A stretch of DNA of 64,000 nt, taken from the UHGV virus genome UHGV-1493261. One strand, given 5' to 3'. Numbering within the stretch: the first letter of the stretch is position 1; each line of letters starts with the position of its first letter. Positions 3,670-30,664 of this stretch are shown one piece after another. The DNA is from a virus. The position numbers and the translations under genes are program-made. A model generated the notes under the pieces. It saw only the letters and a list, made by a program, of their open reading frames with translations, was not told the origin of the DNA and searched no databases.

Positions 3670-3677
3670 TCATCGAA

Positions 3678-3693
3678 AGCCCCTTCGGGGGCT
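3678..3693 (+). terminator. terminator hairpin AGCCCC-ttcg-GGGGCT
   Basis: Perfect 6-bp GC-rich stem immediately after the stop at 3669. Confidence 0.55.
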
Positions 3694-3701
3694 TATAAAT
3701 A
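3694..3701 (+). promoter_or_regulatory. T4-type late promoter TATAAATA
   Basis: Exact TATAAATA octamer 25 nt upstream of the ATG at 3726. Confidence 0.6.
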
Positions 3702-15529: not shown

Positions 15530-17140
15530 TTACTCTTTGGTGCCGAAATTACCACCATTGTCTTTTAATTCTGCCTTGATGTCAATCTCACCCGGACCCG
15601 TAGGGGATGCAGGGGTTGCACCTGACAGAGAAGAAGCGCGACCAGCACCTTCGGCATATATGATGTTACCATTGATCGTCTGAGCGACAGTCAGTTTGTC
15701 AGCGATTATCTCAGTCGTTAGAATCTTAGGAACCTTCAATGTCCCGCCGACCTCCAGAGTCTCGCAGATAATGCGCAGAATATTCTGCGCTTGCATTTCC
15801 GCTAGGTCACTGAATTTCATCAGCGCTGTGCCCGCAACCACATTTGAGTAGTTGTTGGAATGCAAATGATAGACCTCACCTGTCTTGCGCTGAACTTCAG
15901 TTCCTTTGACCGTCAGGTTGTGGTCCCCGCCGACATAATAACGCTTGTTGAACATCGTCAGGTCATAGTGGTCTTTGACGGACTTGTTGACCACATCACC
16001 ATCCGGCAACATTTGCTTGTAAGACCCAGACTTATGCATCCAATGAAGACGTTCACCACCAGGGGTGTCATCCACTTCCATAATATGCCCAGCTCGGGAC
16101 ACCATGACGTTATTGTACGGGTATTTGGAGCCACCCGCAGCCGGAACTATGGTCTCTCCAGTGTTGTCAATATCCCGCACTCGCCCAGTGGGAGCCGGAG
16201 TCGGTTGTTCCTTTGGAGTACGATCTGGGATAGGTTCTGACCATTTACCATTCTGCTGAGCAGGCAAGGCTGTGGCTGTGTTAGCAGGACCAGGCCAACG
16301 ATACCCCAAGACCGAAGAACGTCTGAAACGACTGACCTTCACTGAATCGGATTGGTTGCCACCAATACACCAGACATAGTTTTCATCGAACTTCTGTACA
16401 AACGCCACGTGTCCAAATGTAGGGTTGTTACCACGCCGGAAGACTACGATAGCACCATATTGTGGTGCTGACAGTGGAGTGCCCCATGTAAGGTAAGATC
16501 GGGCAAGAGCGGAGCGTGTAGACGTGTATCCAGCCTGTATCATAACCCAACCCACGAACGCCGCACACCACGACACTTCATCTTCAGAAGCACCAAGGGA
16601 GGTTGTCTTGTGATATTCTATAATGCGCGGGTTGTTGTTGAACTTTCCGGCATACTCCTTGATACCCAATTCGCCACGAGCGATTGTCATCCACTTCTCT
16701 GGATCATACCCACCAACAGGTGGTTGTGGATCTGGTTGTGGTTCGTCTTCTTGTTTCACAGGAACGTCAGTGACAGCGTTGTACGCCTGACGTTCTACAG
16801 ATTGAACGACCTGCCCGAGAGCCAGCGGGTTTGTGTCGGCGCCATCAGTAGGGCTTGAACCAGTCCAAGTCCAGGTGATGCGTAAATTCTGGTATGCTTC
16901 GTCAAGGGCGAACCCCATAACCTCAGTGCCAGGAATGATACCCGTTGGAGACCAACCTAAACCAGCAGAGGAGGCATTTGAAGCAGGCATCAGTACCTTC
17001 GCCCATGGGAGTTTGTCTGTAGGCAGGAGGACGGGATCGTCGGTGTGTACGCCATATATGCGGACGGCGACGCGCCCGTTTTGGTCTGGATCGTTGACAT
17101 CTTCAACGGTGCCGTAAAACCATCTCATATTGTCTAACAT
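15530..17140 (-). CDS. 5: baseplate central spike: gp5-like N-terminal OB domain fused to a CHAP peptidase/amidase domain
   Basis: N-terminus WFYGTVEDVNDPDQNGRVAVRIYGVH...LPWAKVL; CHAP Cys (SWCAAFVGWV) and His (GHVAFV). Confidence 0.7.
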   Translation of the reverse strand: MLDNMRWFYGTVEDVNDPDQNGRVAVRIYGVHTDDPVLLPTDKLPWAKVLMPASNASSAGLGWSPTGIIPGTEVMGFALDEAYQNLRITWTWTGSSPTDGADTNPLALGQVVQSVERQAYNAVTDVPVKQEDEPQPDPQPPVGGYDPEKWMTIARGELGIKEYAGKFNNNPRIIEYHKTTSLGASEDEVSWCAAFVGWVMIQAGYTSTRSALARSYLTWGTPLSAPQYGAIVVFRRGNNPTFGHVAFVQKFDENYVWCIGGNQSDSVKVSRFRRSSVLGYRWPGPANTATALPAQQNGKWSEPIPDRTPKEQPTPAPTGRVRDIDNTGETIVPAAGGSKYPYNNVMVSRAGHIMEVDDTPGGERLHWMHKSGSYKQMLPDGDVVNKSVKDHYDLTMFNKRYYVGGDHNLTVKGTEVQRKTGEVYHLHSNNYSNVVAGTALMKFSDLAEMQAQNILRIICETLEVGGTLKVPKILTTEIIADKLTVAQTINGNIIYAEGAGRASSLSGATPASPTGPGEIDIKAELKDNGGNFGTKE

Positions 17141-17174
17141 ATTGAGTTCCGGTTGTCAAACAAGGATTTGAAGG

Positions 17175-17182
17175 TATTTATG
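17175..17182 (-). promoter_or_regulatory. late-promoter-like CATAAATA, 35 nt upstream of the gp5-like start
   Basis: Minus-strand read of 17175-17182. Confidence 0.35.
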
Positions 17183-17481
17183 CGCAGCTGATTTTGCCTT
17201 ATATACTATAGGAAGCTCTGCTTCCGTTCATTTTATTTGTTTTATTCGATCCTATTCGCTTCGCTCATCAAACCGCCCTATGCGGGCAGCACCATTCCAA
17301 TGCCATGGAGGCATAAGGGCGAGGCAATAACTGTACACCCCAGAACACTCCTTGAAAAATGGTATTTTACTGACAATCTGATTCAAAACAAACAAACACC
17401 AACAAATGACTCGGGAACAAGCCCATTATAGCAATTTCAGGTAAAGAGAGTGCGTGTTAACCGATTTTACAGTTAAGCCAA

Positions 17482-17505
17482 TAAAAATCCCGCCGAAGCG
17501 GGATT
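17482..17505 (-). terminator. terminator hairpin AATCCCGC-ttcg-GCGGGATT + TTTTT (minus strand)
   Basis: Perfect 8-bp stem plus T run downstream of the gene ending at 17653. Confidence 0.6.
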
Positions 17506-17652
17506 ACTGTTTCTTAGACAACCTGACCTTGAGGGCTTCGGTTAACAAGTCAAGATGCCATGGCATCGACTCGTTGATTTCAAATATGCTATAGCCGTGT
17601 AACTTCAATTCATCACACATCACGAAGTAGGATAATAAATCAGTTTCAAACA

Positions 17653-29594: not shown

Positions 29595-30664
29595 TGGACC
29601 GCATGCTGAAGGTTGCTAAGAAACACGATGACCAGGCTTCAGTGCTGTCCCAATCAGACGCTCTGGAACCGTCTATCATCTGTTCTACTGGTATTCCCCT
29701 GATCGACATCGCATGGTCTGGGCGTATTGACGGCGGCCTGATCTCCGGTATCAAGATGATGGTGGGTGATTCCCGTACCTTCAAAACGATGTTCGGTCTG
29801 GTGGACGTCAAGGCGTACATGGACAAGTTCCCTGACGCTATCTGTGTATTTGCTGACTCGGAAAAGGGTGCCAACGCCGATTACTGGACCTCTATGGGCA
29901 TTGACATGGACCGCGTCCTGTACGTACCGATCGACAACGTTGAACAGACCAAGATCCGCTTGCTGCAGATCCTACAGGAAGTCAAGAAAGGCGACCATGT
30001 TATAATCTTCATCGACTCTATCAGCCAACTTCCCTCCACCAAGGAAGTTGAAGATGCGATCAAAGGGAACGACACTCAAGACATGACCCGCGCCCGTGCC
30101 CTCAACAGCTTCTGGCGTGTCATGACTCCCGAAATCAACAGCAAAAATCTCGTGTGTGTTTGGATCAACTCCTATTACGATGAGATCGGCAACCAATATG
30201 CCGAGCCTAACATCAAAGGTGGCAAACAGGGCTTCTTATCCTCCAACTTGATCTGGTTTATCACCCGTTCTCAGGTGAAGGAAGACAAAGATCTGCTGGG
30301 CTGGAACTTCAACATAAGCATCATGAAAGGTCGCCATGTCAAAGAGAAAGCCAAGCTCCCTGTGACGGTACTGTACAACGGTGGTATTGATCGCTGGAGC
30401 GGCCTGCTTGAGATCGCTCGTGCTCTGGGTTATGTTGATATGCCGTCTTCCGGCTGGTATGTGCGTACAGCCAAGGGTGGTTTCGATCCTGAGAAGGAAA
30501 AGAAATATCAGAAGCGTCAGATGGGTGATGATTTCTGGTATCCGCTGCTGGAGAATGTCAACTTCGCCGATGACGTGAAGAAAATGTTCGGTGTTTCTAA
30601 CGGTACTGTTATGCCTGCTAACATGCTGGAGCAAATGGACCATGTTATTAACACAAGCGAATAA
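29579..30664 (+). CDS. uvsX: RecA-like recombinase UvsX
   Basis: Extensive match to my recollection of T4 UvsX (GGLISGI, DSEKGANADYWTSMGID, FIDSISQL, DMTRARALNSFWRVMTP, GGIDRWSGLLE). Confidence 0.85.
   Translation: MASSLMDRMLKVAKKHDDQASVLSQSDALEPSIICSTGIPLIDIAWSGRIDGGLISGIKMMVGDSRTFKTMFGLVDVKAYMDKFPDAICVFADSEKGANADYWTSMGIDMDRVLYVPIDNVEQTKIRLLQILQEVKKGDHVIIFIDSISQLPSTKEVEDAIKGNDTQDMTRARALNSFWRVMTPEINSKNLVCVWINSYYDEIGNQYAEPNIKGGKQGFLSSNLIWFITRSQVKEDKDLLGWNFNISIMKGRHVKEKAKLPVTVLYNGGIDRWSGLLEIARALGYVDMPSSGWYVRTAKGGFDPEKEKKYQKRQMGDDFWYPLLENVNFADDVKKMFGVSNGTVMPANMLEQMDHVINTSE

Follow-up and report, generated by a model that had tools for sequence, protein, structure and literature searches.

The window analysed here, a 64-kb stretch of the virus genome UHGV-1493261, belongs to a ViI-like phage of the Ackermannviridae and shares 99% identity with the E. 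coli phages YX22 and A221. On its minus strand, the baseplate gene gp5 (15530-17140) and gp26 (17653-18573 or 17653-18459), each the longest ORF on its side of the gap, are spaced by 512 bp (17141-17652) according to the ORF borders. The initial annotation described this whole interval as non-coding between two minus-strand genes; the spacing is real, but 17504-17653 on the minus strand codes for a 49-aa protein, and once this gene is subtracted the true non-coding stretch is 363 bp (17141-17503). On a crude gene map, in which 93% of the window is coding, these 363 bp are the longest real gap of the 64 kb; a 326 bp gap on the same map (18574-18899) is an artefact, as an annotated gene sits there. 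The gap was also rightly called comparatively AT-rich, with a GC content of about 42% versus about 50% in the flanks. As detailed below, the 363 bp are best explained as a conserved regulatory cassette heading the gp5 transcription unit.

The 49-aa gene (MFETDLLSYF..., 17504-17653, minus), present in the ORF list with an ATG overlapping the gp26 stop codon, was previously missed in the window and is an addition to its annotation. It is annotated as a hypothetical protein in LIMEstone1, ChubbyThor, SKML-39, and fGh-Ecl02, is still recognisable in Kevin, phiEa2809, and Vibrio phage K361, and its substitutions in the alignment of relatives fall mostly at third codon positions. The protein matches phrog_9633 over its full length (E 3e-39) and, weakly, phrog_634 ('baseplate hub assembly catalyst'), and could possibly be a gp51-like baseplate-hub assembly factor. 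The terminator of the gp26/49-aa operon (17480-17505, minus) belongs to the 49-aa gene, starts on the final base of that gene's stop codon, and has the G+C-rich stem-loop, the U-run, and the position after a stop codon of an intrinsic (Rho-independent) terminator. Its hairpin (17486-17505), AATCCCGC-TTCG-GCGGGATT, with an 8-bp stem (5 G-C), a TTCG loop, and then TTTTATT on the minus strand, passes the terminator scan, in agreement with the terminator proposed earlier at 17482-17505. The same terminator is annotated in LIMEstone1 and May, and its stem varies by genus yet stays paired (AAUCCCGC/GCGGGAUU, AACCCCAC/GUGGGGUU, and AACCCCGC/GCGGGGUU).

At the other end of the gap, the late-promoter-like element reported at 17175-17182 could be confirmed as CATAAATA on the minus strand, 34 nt upstream of the gp5 ATG at 17140. 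It agrees with the T4-type consensus TATAAATA at 7 of 8 positions and has both the octamer and the spacing of a T4-type late promoter. Its ATAAATA is invariant in all relatives, including Kevin and phiEa2809, and the LIMEstone1 record labels the box upstream of gp5 a putative late promoter. Each of the three ATAAATA occurrences in the window precedes a gene start by about 25-40 nt, and their count is not enriched over chance. Homologues of gp55, gp33, and gp45 have been reported in CBA120, ViI, and AG3 (PMC3184105), and gp45 is annotated in YX22 and LIMEstone1. Since the terminator and the late-promoter-like box are both real and conserved, the interval does hold regulatory sites, as had been supposed.

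Between these two elements, pattern search and alignments place an extended -10-like box, TGCTATAAT, at 17425-17433 (minus), from which a candidate transcript start is predicted near 17418. The last T of this box is replaced by C in 13 of the 23 distinct sequences, no -35 was found for it, and the promoter scan gives no sigma-70 site in the region; the motif GAAATTGYTATAAY is neither enriched nor recurrent within the window. Two further boxes, TTGAAT (17381-17386) and AAATACCATTTTTC (17354-17367), stand out as invariant alignment columns on the minus strand (17354-17386 together). A sigma-54 promoter reading of TGGCAT...TGC was rejected, its spacing being off by 2 nt.

Comparison with related genomes revealed that at least 270 Ackermannviridae records, spanning four or more genera, keep the region at the same place and at near-constant length. 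Among 23 distinct sequences, the distance from the -10-like box to a hairpin on the gp5 side (the 3' hairpin described below) is 215-226 nt, and a conserved core of 110 nt (17252-17361, minus), captured in the covariance model R1, measures 109-111 nt in all but one of them, with a mean column identity of 81%. Across five genera, 60-72% of the core columns are invariant, which is the level of the best-conserved coding segments nearby. A deletion scar, one of the earlier suggestions, is contradicted by this constancy of place, length, and core. Scanning of viral contigs yielded 20 loci, mostly the same isolate genomes, but contributed a few distinct sequences; the 30 loci found by scanning metagenome contigs with TGCCTCCNTGGCATTGGAA were all chance matches in which the flanking core was missing, and added no new lineages.

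The cassette occurs three times per genome in collinear form, upstream of gp5, gp6, and gp45, with the gp6 and gp45 copies outside the window. Located in YX22, the cassettes lie near 44, 90.6, and 134.6 kb of the ~155-kb genome, those of gp6 and gp45 at divergent gene junctions, and all three are conserved in about 270 genomes. Model R1, built from gp5 copies only, recovered the window copy (E 3e-26) and, in six genomes, the gp6 copies (E 1e-7 to 1e-10); within 94 kb it hit no sequence other than gp5 and gp6 copies. No paralogue exists inside the 64-kb window, where the second occurrence of CCTATAGTAT (49542) falls within an ORF and is due to chance. Each cassette opens with a TATAAT/TATTAT box: at the place matching the -10-like box, the other two carry TATTAT(A), which the LIMEstone1 authors annotated as a putative promoter in the gp45 cassette. 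The paralogue alignment shows the two 5' boxes to be common to all three cassettes in the general form TTGAAT...AAAAC(T/C)NNTTT(T)C. In place of the late-promoter box, the gp6 cassette carries GCTAAATA, a form described as a late-promoter variant for some T4 relatives (PMC2988020). The extreme conservation of the core and the two paralogous cassettes were, like the 49-aa gene and the pseudoknot and tandem-GA hairpin described next, absent from the initial annotation.

The alignments support folding of the core as RNA on the gp5-sense strand, with conserved helices that change in a compensatory manner. A column-pair scan and covariation delineate 17292-17314 (minus) as a predicted H-type pseudoknot. 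Stem 1 pairs AUGCC (17310-17314) with GGCAU (17300-17304), and stem 2 pairs the loop CCAU (17305-17308) with AUGG (17292-17295) across the linker UGGA, giving a geometry of 5 bp in stem 1, 1 nt in loop 1, 4 bp in stem 2, 0 nt between the stems, and 4 nt in loop 3. Stem 1 is invariant among gp5 copies, and the gp6 copies change two of its pairs on both sides (AUGCC/GGCAU to CAGCC/GGCUG); in Taipeivirus and CRW-SP2, both copies have C-G instead of A-U at one pair of stem 2. With these two covarying pairs in stem 1 and one in stem 2, the pseudoknot pairs in 14 of 14 distinct sequences. It was preferred over an extended hairpin 1, with C-G and U·G beneath the stem, because that extension is not kept in the gp6 copies.

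The imperfect inverted repeat GCCCTATGCGGGC, which had been noticed before, exists at 17272-17290 and proves to be a covarying hairpin, GCUGCCC-GCAUA-GGGCGGU on the minus strand (hairpin 2, from RNAalifold). Two of its pairs are compensatory (C-G/U-A and U-A/U-G/C-G), and three positions carry G·U pairs, which would turn into A·C mismatches on the opposite strand. It is followed at 17250-17271 (minus) by a tandem-GA hairpin, UUGAU-GA-GC-GAA-GC-GA-AUAGGA, with the conserved core GAGCGAAGCGA at 17256-17266 and the general form [stem]-GA-G(C/U)-(3-4 nt loop)-(G/A)C-GA-[stem]. A pattern scan found this motif once or twice in nearly all of 18 upstream regions of the gp5, gp6, and gp45 cassettes, the exceptions being an inserted variant in the Mansal gp5 copy and the Ag3 and YX22 gp6 3' copies, which the scan did not list; the hairpin is also present in Kevin, phiEa2809, and Vibrio phage K361. 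Its inner pair alternates between C-G and U-A, and its outer stems vary, that of the window being weak, with 2 contiguous pairs and 5/6 overall. The invariant 5'-GA...GA-3' around a short G-C/C-G helix resembles the tandem sheared G·A pairs of kink-turns, but no copy of the hairpin has the 3-nt bulge, so this recurring element is not a canonical kink-turn. We know of no L7Ae-type protein in these hosts or phages.

Beyond the core, the 3' hairpin GGAAGC-AGA-GCUUCC (17211-17225) and the adjoining TATAGTAT (17203-17210), together 17203-17225, follow an A-rich tract when read on the minus strand. The hairpin shows the compensatory series GGAAGC/GCUUCC, GGAUGC/GCAUCC, GGCUGC/GCAGCC, and GGCGGC/GCCGCC. 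It passes the terminator scan only on the plus (antisense) strand, as do the hairpins of the gp6 and gp45 cassettes; 17211-17225 is not an intrinsic terminator on the sense strand, where no U-run follows and the sequence continues as UAUAGUAUAU.

By RNAalifold and the column-pair scan, five pairs of the hairpins and the pseudoknot change on both sides. Pairing holds in 100% of cells in 14 distinct gp5- and gp6-copy sequences, versus 22-56% when the partners are slid by 1-3 columns, and 0 of 500 shuffles reached the observed covariation score. The compensatory changes derive from few independent events (about five genus-level lineages and one paralogue split), so that their statistical weight is moderate. 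Fold z-scores are -2.2 for the minus strand and -1.5 for the plus strand, and the RNA was assigned to the gp5-sense strand because the G·U pairs of hairpin 2 and the tandem G·A dinucleotides fit only there. The earlier idea of a structured RNA in the interval thus gains comparative support from compensatory changes in four helices and from G·U pairs on the sense strand only, and we regard conservation, paralogy, covariation-supported structure, and strand as established by these alignments. About half of the invariant core (17315-17361) shows no covariation-supported structure. Several other pairings were considered: a UCGC/GCGA closing stem proposed by RNAalifold is invariant, hence uninformative, and competes with a possible GGGGUG/CGCCCU stem that itself covaries in Kuttervirus and Kevin and fails in Taipeivirus and CRW-SP2; the long-range 5'/3' pairing of the single-sequence MFE fold and an ACCAUU/AAUGGU pairing are both absent from other genera; and a hammerhead-like CUGAUGA...GAAA reading of UGAUGAGCGAAGCGAA was rejected, being unconserved in Kuttervirus and Taipeivirus and having no Rfam match.

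These compensatory changes bear on whether the cassettes might act as DNA, for example as a platform on which a phage regulator binds at the gp5, gp6, and gp45 promoters, with the fold having no function. The position just upstream of promoters, the long invariant segments without supported pairing, and the palindrome-like ATGCC-N5-GGCAT in the hairpin-1 region would all suit protein-binding sites, and no early or middle promoter of the ViI-like phages has yet been identified (PMC3184105). Nevertheless, we consider such a reading quite unlikely, since some of the changes in the four helices pass through G·U intermediates that are meaningless in duplex DNA, the tandem G·A motif, flanked by covarying pairs, is characteristic of RNA, and a protein operator is not expected to show such co-variation of its half-sites.

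Far less probable still is that the core codes for a small protein, either on the minus strand (MPPWHWNG..., about 20-28 aa) or on the plus strand (a 43-64-aa ORF at 17237-17431, annotated as gp110 in ChubbyThor). Open frames do cross the core in all three minus-strand frames, a plus-strand open frame of 72-73 codons is found in Agtrevirus, Limestonevirus, and Kuttervirus, small ORFs are annotated here in some GenBank records, and ATGCCTCCATGGCATTGGAATGG varies at three positions, each the third of a codon in the MPPWHW frame. However, two of these three changes covary as a pseudoknot pair (A1 columns 121 and 133), and the remaining one affects a nucleotide left unpaired between the pseudoknot and hairpin 2. 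Indels of lengths not divisible by three separate the genera (A1 columns 109, 146, 157-158, and 175) while the nucleotides stay invariant, and the predicted minus-strand peptides, 18-37 aa long, are unrelated between genera past residue 8. Their ATG has no Shine-Dalgarno sequence, and the AAGGAG before an alternative GTG is missing in Kuttervirus and Taipeivirus. The plus-strand ORF had already been judged spurious for want of a Shine-Dalgarno sequence, and this judgement is upheld: it has no RBS, is interrupted in Taipeivirus and CRW-SP2, and in Kuttervirus encodes an unrelated C-terminal half. A kept frame, an RBS, and a conserved peptide are found for the core on neither strand.

The RNA does not correspond to a described family. 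Searches with the 4227 covariance models of Rfam 15 over 16900-17900 and 17190-17440 gave no family match inside 17200-17450, where the sole hit was at chance level (9 bits against a 50-bit threshold), a scan of the gp6 and gp45 paralogues gave no Rfam hit, and ARAGORN predicted 0 tRNA or tmRNA genes in the whole window, so that a known structured RNA or tRNA, which the initial annotation had proposed to seek with covariance models, finds no backing. A host-mimicry or plasmid origin was likewise dismissed, with no similarity in 5,426 E. coli genomes and 72,556 plasmids, and a search of the available literature for Ackermannviridae transcriptomes or non-coding RNAs returned nothing relevant. 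The combination of a pseudoknot with a recurring tandem-GA hairpin, outside described RNA families, makes the element a candidate new RNA family.

The variants of hairpin 2 and of the pseudoknot are common to the gp5 and gp6 copies of one genome, and the Mansal gp5 copy contains a 6-nt insert identical to gp6-copy sequence. This points to gene conversion between the copies, which would make the gp5 and gp6 copies not fully independent. The sharing of variants within a genome would also fit a common partner in trans, and raises the possibility that the element is a trans-acting small RNA of about 200-220 nt, reaching from the -10-like box to the 3' hairpin (17211-17225), with host or phage mRNAs or proteins as targets. 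The fixed distance of 215-226 nt between those two elements, the structured conserved modules combined with long invariant stretches without supported pairing, and an invariant, anti-Shine-Dalgarno-like CCUCC in the pseudoknot as a candidate contact are all compatible with such an RNA, and the three paralogues per genome could make an RNA family. Nevertheless, the 3' hairpin lacks a sense-strand U-run and scores as a terminator in antisense only, no homologue in E. coli genomes or plasmids hints at mimicry, and all copies lie directly upstream of a gene and co-oriented with it, a typical cis pattern, so that we hold a small RNA to be possible though unlikely.

The dispersal of three copies over a ~155-kb genome also invites comparison with the T4 origins oriF, oriG, and oriE, at which a promoter-driven RNA lies by an A/T-rich tract, at dispersed sites and points of transcription divergence (PMC3016281). 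If the cassettes were origins of this type, the structured RNA would prime the leading strand as an R-loop on an A+T-rich unwinding region. In each copy, a -10-like box is indeed combined with a structured RNA and an A/T-rich tract; two copies lie at transcription divergence, as reported for the more active T4 origins, and T4 oriE depends on an early-type promoter (PMC3016281); and the YX22 gp45 cassette contains an iteron-like tandem duplication (TTATTATCTTTAATAAAG x2). However, the T4 origins have no common sequence motif (PMC3016281) and no conserved fold is known to be required in their RNAs, whereas the cassettes share a motif. At about 20-30 nt in the gp5 and gp6 copies, the A/T-rich tracts are short, and the composition profile has no inflection of skew at this site. 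An origin function therefore appears improbable to us.

The reading we favour, to which we give an even chance, is that the core is part of a cis-acting leader RNA. On the minus strand, the cassette consists, in order, of the gp26/49-aa terminator, the -10-like box, the two 5' boxes, the 110-nt core, the A-rich tract, the 3' hairpin, and the late promoter. Host RNA polymerase would initiate the leader at the upstream -10-like box, ahead of late transcription, and the transcripts would run on towards gp5, since the leader has no sense-strand terminator of its own; the terminator scan found no sense-strand intrinsic terminator between the core and gp5. The folded modules may then serve as binding or processing sites that steer the fate of the transcript, whether by way of stability, of translation, or of elongation past downstream hairpins. 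Late in infection, the downstream gp55-type promoter would yield a leaderless gp5 mRNA, thereby bypassing the leader. Transcription of the element, its promoter, its 3' end, and its regulatory role are what we infer from the arrangement of these conserved parts. A promoter would be needed at the gp6 and gp45 cassettes because they stand at divergent gene junctions. In Vibrio phage K361, the GA hairpin comes right after a TATAAT box and about 30 nt before the gp5 start, which places the GA hairpin in the 5' UTR. Counting against a leader, gp5 and gp6, as late structural genes, already have a late promoter of their own, and why they should need an early or middle leader is puzzling.

Among known phage elements, the closest in layout are the PeSL (promoter-early stem-loop) cassettes, terminator/promoter composites described for T4-like phages (PMC2839356, PMC4122927). 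Both are short composite non-coding cassettes repeated in a T4-related genome, both pair a terminator-like stem-loop with a promoter-like box, and both exchange sequence between copies, here seen in the hairpin-2 variants and the Mansal insert. PeSLs, however, are small and numerous, lie in hyperplastic regions between variable early genes, and are not described as folded RNA domains, whereas three copies of 250-360 bp each are found here before the conserved core genes gp5, gp6, and gp45, with a covariation-supported pseudoknot and GA hairpins and without a recognisable -35. With only three copies, no -35, and none elsewhere in the window, the cassettes fall outside the PeSL class.

Two RNA elements offer further analogies. 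The put (polymerase-utilisation) RNAs of HK022, a lambdoid phage, are cis-acting antiterminators; the likeness is one of working principle and is positional only, in that both are paralogous promoter-proximal RNAs before downstream hairpins or terminators, where transcription units begin. Both also combine conserved structure with specific unpaired nucleotides, put being a compact two-helix RNA. Nevertheless, the two share no sequence similarity, put contains no pseudoknot, and the genes downstream here are late ones with their own promoter. The pseudoknot in the leader of T4 gene 32 mRNA, which serves translational autoregulation, is likewise an H-type pseudoknot with a one-nucleotide first loop, located 5' of a T4-family gene and conserved among relatives. 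It precedes a different gene, however, and the element described here is separated from the start codon by about 150 nt and by a late promoter, with no counterpart identified for the adjacent unstructured binding tract.

A bolder proposal, which we regard as speculative and rather unlikely, is that the three cassettes represent a hitherto unrecognised class of RNA device, acting in cis, by which ViI-like phages order their transcription programme or origin firing. The module of pseudoknot, hairpin, and GA hairpin would bind RNA polymerase or a phage factor and would either switch the gp5, gp6, and gp45 operon transcripts between termination and read-through, by put-like antitermination, or prime three origins. 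To our knowledge, ViI-like phages are without the MotA/AsiA middle-mode machinery of T4, and the signals behind their early and middle control have so far escaped detection.

Ackermannviridae such as CBA120, Vi01, LIMEstone, and the Klebsiella Taipeiviruses are widely used candidates for biocontrol and therapy. The authors of the CBA120 study were able to identify no early promoters and no regulators (PMC3184105). Our results speak against the assorted small 'hypothetical proteins' annotated across the region in several GenBank records, and extend the reach of the GA hairpin to Vibrio phages. An RNA-level element kept by strong purifying selection before two baseplate genes and the sliding-clamp operon, present in every member examined, offers an entry point to early and middle control in this family.

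A 1-kb query around the gap matched Enterobacter phage fGh-Ecl02 and E. coli phages A221, AV101 and YX22 at 99% identity, Shigella phage Ag3 at 96% and Dickeya phage LIMEstone1 at 89.5%, all of them Ackermannviridae; the database places fGh-Ecl02 in Kuttervirus, despite its 99% identity to this Aglimvirinae-type window. According to annotation in relatives and PHROG matches, the flanking genes are gp5 (baseplate hub and tail lysozyme; 15530-17140, minus) and gp26 (baseplate hub; 17653-18459/18573, minus). The longest gp26 frame (17653-18573, minus; 306 aa, GTG start) overlaps a divergent 176-aa gene (18503-19033, plus) by ~70 bp and is the form used by ChubbyThor, while most relatives start at the ATG at 18459 (268 aa); the short form is probably the right one. 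The initial annotation regarded the roughly 510 bp at 17141-17652 as non-coding. The size holds (512 bp between gp5 and gp26), but the interval contains a 49-aa gene (17504-17653, minus) with an ATG overlapping the gp26 stop codon. This ORF is annotated in several relatives, is recognizable out to Serratia phage Kevin, Erwinia phage phiEa2809 and Vibrio phage K361, and varies mainly at third codon positions in the alignment. Its product gives a full-length match to phrog_9633 (E 3e-39) and a weak one to the C-terminal part of the PHROG "baseplate hub assembly catalyst" (gp51-like) family; the gene is absent from the GenBank annotation of CBA120, May, 0507-KN2-1, EspM4VN and SeSz-1. A terminator scan placed its intrinsic terminator at 17486-17505 (minus; hairpin plus TTTTATT), the stem of which changes in sequence between genera with pairing kept. 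With the gene set apart, the non-coding stretch is 17141-17503 (363 bp), the longest true gap in the window by a crude gene map (93% coding).

Searching with these 363 bp by blastn matched at least 270 phage records, from Agtrevirus, Limestonevirus, Kuttervirus and Taipeivirus as well as from relatives that are unclassified. The Kuttervirus sequence in "Enterococcus phage Efm 3-10" (38.5 kb) and "Pseudomonas phage Pa-sanjiao" matches about as closely as that of Salmonella Kutterviruses, so these records are probably mislabelled or contaminated. In alignments of 12 and later 23 distinct gp5-upstream sequences the layout was fixed, with 215-226 nt from the TATAAT-like box to the 3′ hairpin in every sequence. 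The core (17252-17361, minus) measured 109-111 nt in 22 of the 23, with a mean column identity of 81%. Across five genera, in 40-nt bins, 60-72% of its columns were invariant, a level that gp5, gp26 and the 49-aa gene reach in their best segments, against 12-38% in the remaining spacer; compared with LIMEstone1, the window is 93-100% identical here and ~80-90% in the flanking genes. These comparisons show a conserved non-coding cassette upstream of gp5. The matches in at least 270 records, the fixed layout and a core as invariant as the best coding segments refute a deletion scar, one of the origins initially proposed, which is effectively excluded.

Open frames span the core on both strands, and small proteins are annotated there in some GenBank records. 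A small protein from the core is nevertheless effectively excluded, because single-base indels between genera (columns 109, 146, 157-158 and 175 of the gp5-upstream alignment) shift the frame amid invariant nucleotides, the peptides (18-37 aa) are unrelated between genera beyond the first eight residues, no ribosome-binding site precedes the ATG of MPPWHWNG... (AAGGAG precedes an alternative GTG start in some genera only), and the 72-codon plus-strand frame does not stay open in Taipeivirus and CRW-SP2.

From the 23 sequences, RNAalifold predicted hairpin 1 (AUGCC/GGCAU), hairpin 2 (GCUGCCC-GCAUA-GGGCGGU), which is the inverted repeat of the initial annotation, and a 3′ hairpin (GGAAGC/GCUUCC), the last two with compensatory changes. 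When every pair of columns was scanned, one more helix emerged, between the hairpin-1 loop residues CCAU and AUGG four bases downstream; the sole two variable positions of this 25-nt stretch covary (A-U to C-G). Hairpin 1 and this helix therefore form a predicted classical H-type pseudoknot (5-bp stem, 1-nt loop, 4-bp stem, 4-nt loop). The fold was assigned to the gp5-sense strand because the opposite strand would have A·C mismatches in place of the G·U pairs of hairpin 2; folding of the single sequence is in weak agreement (z = -2.2 vs -1.5, gp5-sense lower). In 14 distinct gp5 and gp6 sequences, pairing held in all 224 cells and five pairs had changed on both sides; with the partners shifted by 1-3 columns, pairing fell to 22-56%, and no shuffle reached the observed covariation score, although the events are few and some variants are common to both copies of a genome. 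The latter indicates gene conversion between the gp5 and gp6 copies, which are thus not independent samples. Covariation nevertheless shows a structure on the gene-sense strand, and the rival reading of the cassettes as purely DNA-level sites has to be set beside it. The core 5′ half (17315-17361, minus), CAUUUUUC...UCUG.G.GUA..GU..UU.CCUCGC, is almost invariant, and no covariation-supported structure was found in it; its CGC(CC) could pair with GGGGUG upstream or GCGA downstream, the two being mutually exclusive.

YX22, the closest complete genome, holds two further partial copies, both outside the window: each occupies another intergenic region of ~360 bp and points the same way as the gene behind it. 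One precedes gp6 (baseplate wedge) and the other gp45 (sliding clamp), and both are kept in ~270 genomes. A covariance model built solely from gp5 copies picked up the gp6 copies in six genomes (E 1e-7 to 1e-10) and had no other match across 94 kb of YX22. Hairpin 1 of the gp6 copy, CAGCC/GGCUG vs AUGCC/GGCAU, differs by two compensatory pairs in a stem that is constant among the gp5 orthologues; its pseudoknot pair, as in the gp5 copies, is C-G in Taipeivirus but A-U in most genera. Alignment of the three shows collinear paralogues within a genome, each running from a TAT(A/T)AT box through TTGAAT and AAAAC(T/C)NNTTT(T)C, a variable segment, an optional GA hairpin (gp6, gp45 and Kevin copies), the pseudoknot and hairpin 2 (gp5 and gp6 copies), the GA hairpin GAGCGAAGCGA, an A/T-rich tract and a hairpin to a late promoter (CATAAATA for gp5, GCTAAATA for gp6) and ~35 nt to the start codon. 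The Kevin gp5-upstream region has three match places in each of seven Serratia Miltonvirus records, only the one upstream of gp45 being seen directly, which fits a three-cassette arrangement there too. The YX22 gp6-upstream cassette (134540-134904) is 94% identical to Kuttervirus phages and only ~80% to Agtrevirus Ag3; since an Aglimvirinae phage is here closer to Kuttervirus than to Ag3, this points to recent inter-genus recombination. In Salmonella phage Mansal, a 6-nt insert in the gp5-upstream core gives ACGAGCGAGGGCGTCAGCGAG, reproducing the gp6-upstream sequence ACGAGCGAGGGCGTCAGC, an apparent case of gene conversion between these cassettes.

The GA hairpin is built around a strongly conserved core, GAGCGAAGCGA (17256-17266), and has the form stem-GA-G(C/U)-(3-4 nt loop)-(G/A)C-GA-stem; it was found once or twice in nearly all 18 upstream regions of the three cassettes from seven genera. 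Loops and outer stems differ, the inner pair alternates between C-G and U-A, and the Mansal gp5 copy has the hairpin as an inserted variant. The two invariant GA dinucleotides can form tandem sheared G·A pairs, a feature of sense-strand RNA. In Kevin a second GA hairpin stands in place of the module of pseudoknot and hairpin 2, the core length still being 110 nt. In K361 the hairpin directly follows a TATAAT box and lies ~30 nt upstream of the gp5 start, and is thereby placed in the 5′ UTR.

The late-promoter-like box of the initial annotation (17175-17182) was confirmed, as was its inverted repeat. Each of the window's three ATAAATA sites sits 25-40 nt upstream of a gene start, and GCTAAATA is a late-promoter variant of some T4 relatives (PMC2988020). 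Two clean TATAAATA boxes (3677-3701, plus; 23294-23301, minus) lie 25-35 nt upstream of gene starts, the one at 3694 fused directly behind a terminator hairpin (GCCCC-TTCG-GGGGC) with no intervening U-run. In every cassette, the 3′ hairpin passes as an intrinsic terminator on the antisense strand only; sense transcripts would therefore meet no canonical terminator ahead of the gene; a free small RNA, the rival reading on which the cassette RNA would act apart from the gene, has to be weighed against this.

Rfam held no family matching any of the three cassettes, ARAGORN found no tRNA, E. coli genomes and plasmids held no similar sequence, and a metagenome pattern scan returned chance matches only. 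At the gp5-upstream region, the LIMEstone1 paper and record mark nothing beyond the terminator and late promoter; the LIMEstone1 annotation also has a -10 box heading the gp45 cassette. Early and middle promoters and regulators of ViI-like phages could not be identified in the CBA120 study (PMC3184105), and we found no transcriptome study of Ackermannviridae in the literature searched.

The initial proposal of a small RNA or regulatory sites is partly supported. Most likely, we infer, the core is a cis-acting leader RNA: it would be transcribed from the upstream -10-like box and run on into the gene, its folded modules would be binding or processing sites, and late in infection the T4-type promoter would bypass it. 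The main weakness is the -10-like box, which lacks a -35 and ends in C in 13 of the 23 sequences. The cassettes might alternatively yield origin or primer RNAs comparable to those of T4 oriF/G/E (PMC3016281). The YX22 gp45-upstream cassette has a ~20-nt tandem duplication, (G/A)TTATTATCTTTAATAAAG twice (29600-29660 of the YX22 stretch L067), where LIMEstone1 has one copy, so that the YX22 arrangement is iteron-like. The operon headed by this cassette encodes a "translation repressor protein" (RegA-like; YX22 87152-87616, L067 26153-26617), a possible RNA-binding partner of the cassettes. As a leader RNA or otherwise, the element is a candidate for a new family of structured RNAs specific to Ackermannviridae.
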